Assembly: GCF_055900595.2 (NCBI RefSeq)
Contig: NZ_CM148325.1
Strand: one strand, 5' to 3'
DNA length: 64,000 nucleotides
Shown here: positions 5,548 to 43,580 of the stretch, one piece after another
Layout of the letters: each line of letters starts with the position of its first letter
Position numbering within the stretch: the stretch's first letter is position 1
Program-made: the position numbers and the translations under genes
Notes under the pieces: generated by a model
Told to the model about the DNA's origin: nothing
The model's input: only the letters and a program-made list of their open reading frames with translations
The model's database searches: none

Positions 5548-6987
5548 TTACTGCAACCAGGTCGCGGCGAATACGCTGGAAATCAGCGACATCACAATTA
5601 GTACAATCAACACCAGGCGCATTGATCCTGGCAGCGGTGCGGCAGCGGCGACGGCTTCGCTCGGTTTGCCAGGCACGACGCGACCAAACCAGCGAATAAA
5701 CCAGGCGAAACTGGCGACCGATTCAATCATCAGCAGAATCATGGCGGGCAGCAGGATCCAGTACTCCACTGACAACGAAAAACCGGCAGCAAACAGTGGG
5801 AATTTACTGAAGAAGCCGTTGAACGGCGGCACGCCAGTAATCGCCAGCGCGGCCACGCAGAAACCCACGCCTGGCAACGGCAGGGTGTGCAATACGCCAC
5901 GCAGGCGCGGCAACAAGCGCGTGCCGCAGCTGTAACTCAGCGCACCTGCTACAAGGAAAAACAGGCTTTTAGCGAACGCGTGGTTGACGATGTAGGCGAT
6001 GCTGCCCTCCAGTGCCAGCCGCGAGCCGAAGATGGAGAGCGACAAGCCGAAGAACATCCAGCCAAGTTGAGTGATGGTCGACCAGGCCAGCAACCGCTTC
6101 ATATCCTGCTGCGGCAAATACATCAGGAAGCCGTAAAGAATGGTGACCAGTGCCATGACCATGCCAATGCCGCCAATCACATGCGGGATATTGCCGCCGT
6201 CGATAATGGCGCGGGCAAAAATGTAAACGCCCACTTTCACCATCGATGCGGCGTGGAGATAGGCGCTGATCGGTGTTGGCGCTTCCATTGCATCCGGTAG
6301 CCACGCTTGCATCGGTAGCTGGGCCGATTTTCCCCACGCGGCAAACAGGATGCCGCCATAAACCAGATAACGTGCGTCGCCGTGTAACTCGCTCATCGCG
6401 CTAAGCGCAAACGTTCCGGTCTGCAAAAACAGCGTGGCGGCGGCAAGATACAACCCCAGCGAACCGATATGAGTGATAAGTAACGCTTTTAGTGCTGAAC
6501 GTTGCGCTTTATCGCTCTGGTAATAACTGATCAACGCCCAGGAGCAGCCGCCCGTAATTTCAAAAAACAACAACTGACCGAGCAGCGTCGAGGAGAGTAC
6601 CAGTCCCGCCATCGCGCCGATAAAAACCAGCAAAAATGCGTAATAACGATTCGTGCCGTTATGCGGGTGTTCGCGATTTTTATCCGTCAGATAACCCGTG
6701 GAGTAGATCGTGACCAGCAAACCGAGGAACACCACCACAAACAGAATCAGCGTACTCACGCGATCAATGACCAGGCCAAACAACGCCACATCCCCCACGT
6801 TGACCAACGTCAACGTGACGGCAACTTTATCGGCCTGATAAAACGCGGAGATCAGCGACAACATGCACAGCGTGGTCAGCGCGGCGAACAAAATCCCCCA
6901 TTCGGCGGCCCGACGTTGTGGCGAAAACGAAACGACCAGTGCGCCGATAAAAGGCAGCAATAACGTCGTCAGAGCAAGATTTTCCAT
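5548..6987 (-). CDS. hyfD: Hydrogenase-4 membrane subunit, NuoM/N antiporter-like
   Basis: 479-aa polytopic membrane ORF; conserved position. Confidence 0.93.
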   Translation of the reverse strand: MENLALTTLLLPFIGALVVSFSPQRRAAEWGILFAALTTLCMLSLISAFYQADKVAVTLTLVNVGDVALFGLVIDRVSTLILFVVVFLGLLVTIYSTGYLTDKNREHPHNGTNRYYAFLLVFIGAMAGLVLSSTLLGQLLFFEITGGCSWALISYYQSDKAQRSALKALLITHIGSLGLYLAAATLFLQTGTFALSAMSELHGDARYLVYGGILFAAWGKSAQLPMQAWLPDAMEAPTPISAYLHAASMVKVGVYIFARAIIDGGNIPHVIGGIGMVMALVTILYGFLMYLPQQDMKRLLAWSTITQLGWMFFGLSLSIFGSRLALEGSIAYIVNHAFAKSLFFLVAGALSYSCGTRLLPRLRGVLHTLPLPGVGFCVAALAITGVPPFNGFFSKFPLFAAGFSLSVEYWILLPAMILLMIESVASFAWFIRWFGRVVPGKPSEAVAAAAPLPGSMRLVLIVLIVMSLISSVFAATWLQ

Positions 6988-12932: not shown

Positions 12933-13967
12933 ATGGCTTACTCTGTTCAAAAGTCGCGCCTGGCAATGGTTGCGGGTGTTTCGCTTGTTTTATTACTCGC
13001 AGCCTGTAGTTCTGACTCACGCTATAAGCGTCAGGTCAGTGGTGATGAAGCCTACCTGGAAGCGGCACCGCTTGCGGAGCTTCATGCCCCGGCTGGAATG
13101 ATTTTGCCGGTGACCTCCGGTGATTATGCAATCCCGGTGACCAACGGTAGTGGTGCTGTCGGTAAGGCGCTGGACATTCGTCCACCAGCCCAGCCGCTGG
13201 CACTGGTTTCTGGCGCGCGTACCCAGTTCACGGGCGATACCGCTTCATTGCTGGTGGAAAATGGTCGTGGCAATACTCTGTGGCCGCAGGTGGTTAGCGT
13301 GCTGCAGGCGAAAAACTACACCATCACCCAACGTGATGATGCGGGTCAGACGCTGACCACCGATTGGGTACAATGGAACCGTCTGGACGAAGACGAGCAG
13401 TATCGTGGTCGTTATCAAATCTCTGTTAAACCGCAAGGTTATCAGCAGGCGGTTACGGTTAAACTGCTGAACCTGGAACAGGCGGGCAAACCGGTTGCAG
13501 ACGCGGCTTCCATGCAGCGTTACAGCACGGAGATGATGAACGTTATTTCCGCCGGTCTGGATAAATCTGCCACTGACGCCGCGAACGCTGCGCAAAATCG
13601 TGCCTCCACCACTATGGACGTACAAAGTGCAGCTGATGACACCGGTTTACCGATGCTGGTCGTACGCGGGCCGTTCAATGTGGTTTGGCAACGTCTGCCA
13701 GCGGCGCTGGAAAAAGTGGGCATGAAAGTGACCGACAGCACCCGTTCGCAGGGCAACATGGCCGTAACTTACAAGCCGCTGTCTGACAGCGACTGGCAGG
13801 AACTGGGCGCGAGCGATCCAGGCCTGGCATCCGGTGACTATAAACTGCAGGTTGGCGATTTAGATAACCGCAGCAGCCTACAGTTCATCGATCCGAAAGG
13901 TCATACTCTGACTCAGAGTCAGAACGACGCGCTGGTAGCTGTCTTCCAGGCTGCGTTTAGCAAGTAA
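12933..13967 (+). CDS. bamC: Outer membrane protein assembly factor BamC (lipoprotein NlpB)
   Basis: 344 aa with a lipobox (LLLAACSS); immediately downstream of dapA. Confidence 0.93.
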
Positions 13968-13973
13968 AAATAC

Positions 13974-14000
13974 AGGGCTGGAGTCATCCGGCCCTTTTTT
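13974..14000 (+). terminator. Rho-independent terminator after bamC
   Basis: GC-rich imperfect hairpin (GGGCTGGA..TCCGGCCC) followed by a TTTTTT tract. Confidence 0.5.
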
Positions 14001-14010
14001 CTGATATGAT

Positions 14011-14026
14011 ACGCAAACGTGTGCGT
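14011..14026. promoter_or_regulatory. PurR operator (PUR box) in the purC control region
   Basis: Palindrome ACGCAAACGTGTGCGT closely matches the 16-bp PurR box consensus (ACGCAAACGTTTGCGT), about 150 bp upstream of purC. Confidence 0.55.
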
Positions 14027-14069
14027 CGGCAGAAAAATGCGATTTTAGCGGTAATTCGCACGAAATTTG

Positions 14070-14125
14070 TTTGTCGGACGTAGGTCGGATAAGGCGTTCT
14101 TGCCGCATCCGACAAAACATCCGGC
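14070..14125. repeat. REP (repetitive extragenic palindromic) element
   Basis: GTAGGTCGGATAAGGCGTT...GCCGCATCCGACA matches the REP/BIME consensus family. Confidence 0.6.
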
Positions 14126-14179
14126 ACACCAGACAGCAAAAGATTTTAAAACGTTAATTCACACCCAGGAGTGATAAAG

Positions 14180-14893
14180 ATGCAAAAGCAAGCTGAGTTG
14201 TATCGTGGTAAAGCGAAAACCGTATACAGCACGGAAAACCCGGACCTGTTGGTGCTCGAATTCCGCAATGATACGTCAGCAGGGGATGGCGCGCGCATTG
14301 AGCAGTTTGATCGCAAAGGTATGGTGAACAACAAGTTCAACTACTTCATTATGAGCAAACTGGCTGAAGCGGGTATCCCGACTCAAATGGAGCGTCTGCT
14401 CTCCGATACCGAATGTCTGGTGAAAAAGCTGGATATGGTGCCGGTTGAGTGTGTCGTGCGTAACCGTGCTGCTGGCTCTCTGGTGAAACGTCTTGGAATC
14501 GAAGAAGGTATTGAGCTGAACCCGCCGCTGTTCGATCTGTTCCTGAAAAACGACGCCATGCACGATCCGATGGTCAACGAATCTTACTGCGAAACCTTTG
14601 GCTGGGTAAGTAAAGAGAACCTGGCGCGTATGAAAGAGCTGACCTACAAAGCGAACGACGTGCTGAAAAAACTGTTCGATGATGCTGGTCTCATTCTGGT
14701 CGACTTCAAGCTGGAGTTTGGTCTGTACAAAGGCGAAGTGGTTCTGGGCGATGAGTTCTCCCCGGACGGCAGCCGCCTGTGGGACAAAGAAACGCTGGAG
14801 AAAATGGATAAAGACCGTTTCCGCCAGAGCCTCGGTGGCCTGATCGAAGCATATGAAGCCGTTGCCCGCCGCCTGGGTGTACAGCTGGACTGA
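14180..14893 (+). CDS. purC: Phosphoribosylaminoimidazole-succinocarboxamide (SAICAR) synthase
   Basis: 237 aa from [31 protein letters not shown]... Confidence 0.95.

Positions 14894-43496: not shown

Positions 43497-43580
<84 letters not shown>

Follow-up and report, generated by a model that had tools for sequence, protein, structure and literature searches.

A PurR operator on the purC start site and a probable REP-carrying insertion in the Escherichia purC leader

The bamC-purC locus and the purC promoter

The window (the whole 64-kb stretch of DNA that was analyzed) contains open reading frames (ORFs) around the palindrome whose products are GcvR, DapA, BamC, PurC, YpfJ, and TmcA, and the gene order is that of E. 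coli (dapA-bamC-purC-ypfJ). K-12 MG1655 shares this order in the opposite orientation, and the bamC-purC intergenic region measures 212 bp in both. Of 5426 complete E. coli genomes, 5405 contain the 361 bases around the palindrome at 98 to 100% identity, flanked by annotated bamC and purC genes. One of the 5446 places matched by the bamC-purC region sits on a plasmid-typed record. Over positions 13940 to 14200, the window and K-12 differ at 7 positions (13983, 14028, 14033, 14038, 14084, 14100, and 14101), all of which fall outside the PurR box and the -10 element described below.

The bamC gene stops at 13967. A terminator scan placed its intrinsic terminator at 13974 to 14001 (+ strand), where a hairpin (AGGGCTGGAGTCATCCGGCCCT) with a 9-bp, G+C-rich stem (13974 to 13995) precedes a T run; both are kept in 16/16 aligned enterobacterial sequences. 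The purC coding sequence (14180 to 14893, + strand) specifies a product of 237 aa that is 100% identical to the PurC of E. coli and E. albertii. We took the ATG at 14180 as the purC start because it is annotated there and because a Shine-Dalgarno sequence (AGGAG, 14167 to 14171, + strand), conserved across genera, lies 8 nt ahead of it. The program-made ORF list instead opens purC at a GTG at 14171, which would give 240 aa.

For K-12, Table S1 of Kim 2012 (PMC3415461) gives a single purC transcription start site (TSS) at 2595803 on the - strand (24 reads), with a 5' untranslated region (UTR) of 163 nt; the purC upstream sequence reported there ends in ...GATATGATACGCAAA / ...CTGATATGATACGCAAA. 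Because the UTR is counted back from the ATG at 14180, the TSS falls on an A at 14017 (+ strand), and the 5' UTR of the window occupies 14017 to 14179 (+ strand). The transfer relies on K-12 being identical at the start and equal in intergenic length, and the TSS itself is supported by 24 reads of a single genome-wide data set, obtained in K-12 rather than in the present strain. Position 14017 is the seventh base of the PurR operator (PUR box); therefore, the operator spans -6 to +10 of purC.

Relative to the published TSS, the sequence TGATATGAT (14002 to 14010, + strand) presents TG at -15/-14 and TATGAT at -12 to -7, with the TSS 7 nt past TATGAT. This sequence, which abuts the PUR box, can be read as a TGn-extended -10 element. 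No recognizable -35 element was found for purC, and its place would be inside the terminator hairpin; likewise, a sigma-70 two-hexamer scan of 13850 to 14300 returned no promoter. Both negative results are accounted for if the promoter is of the extended -10 type. Among 9 Escherichia sequences, 0/27 positions vary in the extended -10 and box, and the extended -10 is identical in Citrobacter and Pseudocitrobacter. Two other candidate -10 elements were rejected: AAAAAT (14033 to 14038) is absent from K-12, which has GGAAAAC, and it clashes with the mapped TSS, as does GGTAAT (14050 to 14055).

In E. coli strain MEW, a copy of IS200C lies between the bamC terminator and the purC promoter (approximately position 13999/14000 of the window). 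The insertion sequence replaces all sequence upstream of TTCTGATATGAT and spares the extended -10 and the PurR box. This placement is consistent with a purC promoter that is independent of an upstream -35. About 20 of 5425 E. coli genomes cover <80% of the bamC-purC query, and similar insertions are possible in these.

Sequence, binding, and conservation of the PurR operator

The PUR box, ACGCAAACGTGTGCGT, occupies 14011 to 14026; as a palindrome, it is assigned to neither strand. It starts 10 bp past the bamC terminator, ends 153 nt before the purC ATG, and has its center 161 nt before the ATG. The earlier note had described a near-perfect palindrome just after the bamC terminator and about 150 bp upstream of purC, and each element of that description was confirmed. 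Symmetry holds in 7/8 base pairs, the exception being A6/G11, and one mismatch separates the box from the perfect palindrome ACGCAAACGTTTGCGT (15/16 positions). No other sequence in the 64-kb window comes within one mismatch of ACGCAAACGTTTGCGT, with 0.01 such matches expected (100 shuffles). The box thus has the properties of a PurR site, namely, a 16-bp palindrome of the type ACGCAAACGTTTGCGT / ACGNAAACGTTTGCNT with the central CG present.

A PurR matrix (PWM) was made from the 27 other ChIP-chip motifs of Cho 2011 (PMC3159470), leaving out the purC site. With this matrix, the purC box scored 18.9 bits and was the top match in the 64 kb (P=2.5e-7 per position; E=0.03 per window); the score falls inside the range of 11.2 to 25.4 bits spanned by the 28 ChIP sites. 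Together with the identity of the 16-mer to the mapped K-12 purC site, this score bears out the assignment to PurR made in the earlier note. The runner-up in the window was ACCGGAACGTTTGCGC (6405 to 6420, - strand), at 13.8 bits; because 0.75 matches with this score are expected per window, it is at chance level. By K-12 offset, the 6405 match should lie in the coding region of the hyf operon. Within the bamC-purC intergenic region, the PWM scan found no second PurR-like site that could serve in looping. We also note a perfect 8-nt inverted repeat, TTTTTCTG / CAGAAAAA (13996 to 14003 and 14030 to 14037), that brackets the -10 and the PurR box. Its center is 2 bp off that of the box, and K-12 carries one change in it (CAGGAAAA); the repeat is possibly due to chance.

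Direct evidence for binding is available from K-12, in which the 16-mer ACGCAAACGTGTGCGT is identical. The K-12 purC motif derived by ChIP-chip, ACGCACACGTTTGCGT, is the other strand of this same 16-mer, and PurR enrichment at purC (log2) was 2.08 with adenine and 1.52 without (Cho 2011, PMC3159470). The purC promoter also served as the showcase site of IPOD-HR (Freddolino and colleagues, PMC8282354), with occupancy at the annotated PurR site in rich medium that is gone both in a purR deletion and in minimal medium. In the purR deletion, the RNA polymerase signal increases where PurR occupancy had been (PMC8282354).

For comparison, 400 bp upstream of purC was scanned in 80 Enterobacterales species, a set in which Salmonella and Klebsiella pneumoniae are not represented. 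The exact 16-mer was present upstream of purC in 26/80 species, and a PWM match of at least 13 bits was present in 45/80. Identical PUR box sequences occur in more than 20 genera. PurR control of the E. coli purC promoter is long established, and this 16-bp palindrome is the operator in question; as such, it was already known. The site has counted among the textbook operators of the pur regulon since 1990. Its occupancy in vivo has been mapped twice already, and the feature is an ordinary one.

Origin of the long Escherichia leader and its REP element

Within the 80-species sample, the distance from box center to ATG is 56 to 68 nt in most genera, and a distance of 160 to 161 nt is confined to E. 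coli and E. albertii. Short spacing is found in Citrobacter, Enterobacter, Pseudocitrobacter, Phytobacter, Leclercia, Cedecea, and Pluralibacter, and in all in about 20 genera besides Citrobacter and Enterobacter. In alignments, collinearity runs from the terminator through the -10 region and the box and holds again at the ribosome-binding region; the ~103 extra nt of Escherichia lie in the middle of the leader. Thus, the ~150-bp gap between box and ATG reflects a gain of ~103 nt in the 5' UTR of Escherichia, and it consists of transcribed leader rather than spacer DNA.

The extra sequence has two parts. The first is a 72-nt, REP-containing insert (14062 to 14133, + strand) that is absent from 13 aligned non-Escherichia genera; its designation as Escherichia specific holds within the 80-species sample. 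The second is a copy of leader sequence. Local alignment revealed an imperfect direct repeat of ~32 nt on the + strand, with a left copy corresponding to ancestral leader (14030 to 14061) and a right copy that adjoins the ribosome-binding region (14134 to 14164). The two copies, spaced 103 nt apart, align with a score of 31, which was reached by 0/1000 shuffles. Both align to the single-copy leader of Citrobacter; therefore, the short leader is taken as ancestral and the long one as derived. By this reconstruction, ~60 nt of the 163-nt UTR would be ancestral, and the other ~103 nt would consist of the 72-nt REP segment and a second ~32-nt copy of the leader. Judged from these alignments, the long leader arose from the short one by an insertion that came with a duplicated target segment.

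Long leaders occur elsewhere in the sample. Kluyvera genomosp. 1 carries an unrelated ~63-nt segment at the same leader position, with 122 nt from box to ATG, and long box-to-ATG distances (117 to 250 nt) are also found in Serratia and Providencia. This stretch of the purC leader seems to accept insertions repeatedly.

The REP element within the insert, as the earlier note had correctly recognized, lies in the purC leader upstream of the ATG at 14180. Pattern matching identified it as a y-type REP, GTAGGTCGGATAAGGCGTTCTTGCCGCATCCGAC (14080 to 14113, + strand), composed of a 5' GTAG and an imperfect hairpin (GTCGGATAAGGCG/TGCCGCATCCGAC). It departs from the y-type consensus pattern by 2 mismatches, at which level 0 matches are expected by chance, and its 12-nt inverted repeat is 83% complementary. 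A REP pattern with a 5-nt loop spacer misses the purC element because its loop is shorter. A total of 28/32 positions, including the 5' GTAG and the AA bulge, are shared with the crystallized E. coli REP GTAGGACGGATAAGGCGTTTACGCCGCATCCG (PMC3479197). The Rfam match, to the REP-derived naRNA4, was below threshold (31.9 bits versus a cutoff of 59.5).

REPs account for as much as 1% of the E. coli chromosome (PMC3479197), and the window contains three REP matches, of which the purC REP is extragenic. Two opposed REPs, at 43497 to 43533 (- strand) and 43546 to 43579 (+ strand), have the appearance of a BIME-type pair. In the K-12 RefSeq record NC_000913.3, positions 2555000 to 2602000 (~47 kb) have no annotated REP or repeat features even though REPs are present in the sequence; hence, the missing annotation of the purC REP says nothing about its identity.

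In most respects, the purC element resembles the E. coli y-type REP or palindromic unit that is the substrate of the RAYT TnpA-REP, with GTAG, a GGATAAGGCG...GCCGCATCC hairpin, an AA bulge, and an extragenic location. In contrast to the members of a BIME pair, it is solitary, and its location is a 5' UTR, not a 3' end or an intercistronic gap. Its loop region reads TTCTTGCC here versus TTCACGCC in K-12. Unlike a standard y-type REP, it is also nested in an additional outer stem. RNA folding gives an extended hairpin (14069 to 14129, + strand) in which the REP stem is enclosed by the outer stem GTCGGAC ... ATCCGGC. This outer helix is formed by incomplete repeats of the REP stem arms that flank the element, with GTCGGAC preceding GTAG and CATCCGGC following AAAA. 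The sequence CATCCGGC is found again inside the bamC terminator, at 13985 to 13992.

The fold of the extended hairpin is very stable in the window (-29.8 kcal/mol; z score, -5.3). Elsewhere, its energy is -26.6 kcal/mol (K-12), -20.4 kcal/mol (a divergent E. coli), and -17.6 kcal/mol (E. albertii). Among the 9 Escherichia sequences, 24/79 sites vary in 14062 to 14140 versus 0/39 in 14141 to 14179. All 24 variable sites are confined to 14062 to 14129; no other part of the region varies as much as the insert, and 10/34 sites vary within the REP itself. The changes in the hairpin include stem-breaking ones, although 92% pairing is still retained; in the same 9 sequences, 0 compensatory pairs and 16 unpaired cells were counted.

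The evidence favors a tolerated, drifting selfish repeat, because the stem weakens across Escherichia, the insert varies most, and no compensatory change was seen; the neutrality of the REP is inferred from 9 closely related Escherichia sequences. Most simply, the REP inserted in a tolerant spot, with the initially transcribed region on one side and the ribosome-binding region on the other, each of them invariant, and it is probably now drifting.

Alternatively, the hairpin might be functional, whether as a stabilizer, as an attenuator, or as a 3' stabilizer of dapA-bamC read-through, and might add a layer of purC control after initiation. We regard this as unlikely. Classically, a REP shields the RNA located 5' of its hairpin from 3' exonucleases. 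The purC REP, at +64 to +97 of the 5' UTR, is itself 5' of purC; placed ahead of the gene, the hairpin cannot shield the purC coding region in this manner. Stem-loops that stabilize from the 5' side are 5'-terminal, and on this basis a hairpin that begins ~50 nt from the 5' end is discounted as a protective stem. Moreover, the REP is not followed by a terminator-like T run, and the terminator scan called no + strand terminator there.

In favor of a function are the stability of the hairpin in the window, the retention of the insert by both E. coli (5405/5426 genomes) and E. albertii, and reports that REPs raise mRNA stability and cause termination (PMC3479197). More generally, REPs are capable of attenuating transcription or of changing RNA decay. 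Against these stand the drop in energy to -17.6 kcal/mol in E. albertii and the concentration of variation, stem-breaking and uncompensated, in just this part of the region. The portion of the Adams 2021 3'-end mapping supplements that was available holds no entry for purC, which is weak evidence in the same direction. The proposal in the earlier note that the REP stabilizes purC mRNA was accordingly not upheld, given its location 5' of the gene in the least conserved part and the 0 compensatory pairs. Less probable still, the 103-nt addition has been co-opted as a post-initiation control point, or its duplication represents an undescribed mode of REP insertion. A co-opted addition could serve in attenuation, in RNase processing, or in the binding of a protein or small RNA (sRNA).

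PurR repression at purC

Taken together, the locus very probably combines a PurR operator that occludes the promoter at initiation with a long leader that arose by a REP-carrying insertion, now drifting. The purC promoter would sit squeezed between the bamC terminator and the operator. A PurR dimer with its corepressor (hypoxanthine or guanine) would occupy -6 to +10 and would keep RNA polymerase off the -10/start region, with repression at initiation as the result. Direct occlusion is proposed because the operator covers -6 to +10, and we infer steric exclusion as the mechanism from the geometry of operator and TSS and from the IPOD-HR increase in polymerase in the purR deletion.

This geometry is familiar from other regulators. 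At lacO1, a LacI/GalR-family dimer binds a palindrome over the start region and competes with polymerase. The purC site is alike in that a LacI/GalR-family palindrome lies on the start region. Unlike lacO1-type systems, purC has a single operator, without an auxiliary looping site, and the box is centered at +2.5 and touches the -10. The K-12 purC operator has the same 16-mer with the same flanking extended -10, and there are no operator differences from the window. The purB and purR operators share the repressor and the 16-bp motif family with the purC site (PMC3159470). However, at purB and purR the operator is located well within transcribed sequence and acts by blocking elongation (PMC3159470), whereas the purC site overlaps the start point.

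The earlier note had suggested repression from a distance or a roadblock, and this part of it does not stand: the published TSS at 14017 is inside the box. For PurR to loop from a distance or to block elongation, the purC promoter would have to be elsewhere, near the ATG or in bamC, which is highly improbable. Such an arrangement draws some appeal from the 153 nt that separate the end of the box from the ATG, from the two-hexamer promoter not being found around the box, and from the precedent of PurR as a roadblock at purB and purR (Cho 2011, PMC3159470). In addition, a box 10 nt past the bamC terminator could halt the occasional polymerase that passes the terminator from dapA-bamC. Yet the TSS mapped inside the box is the only purC TSS in Kim 2012 (PMC3415461), and an invariant extended -10 precedes it at exactly the right spacing. 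In most genera, the box is ~60 nt from the ATG, and there is thus no room for a separate downstream promoter. A partner site for looping is also missing: the intergenic region has no second PurR-like site, and the best other match in the window is the 13.8-bit sequence at 6405. Finally, in the purR deletion, polymerase occupies the very position that PurR otherwise holds (PMC8282354). Alongside promoter occlusion, PurR bound after the bamC terminator might possibly also stop dapA-bamC read-through, as a side effect and not as the main mechanism.

That the palindrome arose by chance and does not function in regulation is virtually inconceivable: a single 16-mer in 64 kb with a window E-value of only 0.03 would leave some room for coincidence, but this one is a single mismatch from the perfect consensus (0.01 expected), sits at the promoter of a purine gene, is identical across >20 genera, and is bound in vivo in K-12 as an identical sequence (PMC3159470, PMC8282354), which already refutes the idea.

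For purC regulation, the gain is a correction: promoter occlusion by PurR is exerted from an operator on the start site and not from one at a distance. What is mildly new is the lineage-specific origin of the long purC leader, together with the duplication that flanks it. The leader of Escherichia would thereby have received an insertion that was tolerated on either side, by the promoter/operator and by the ribosome-binding region.
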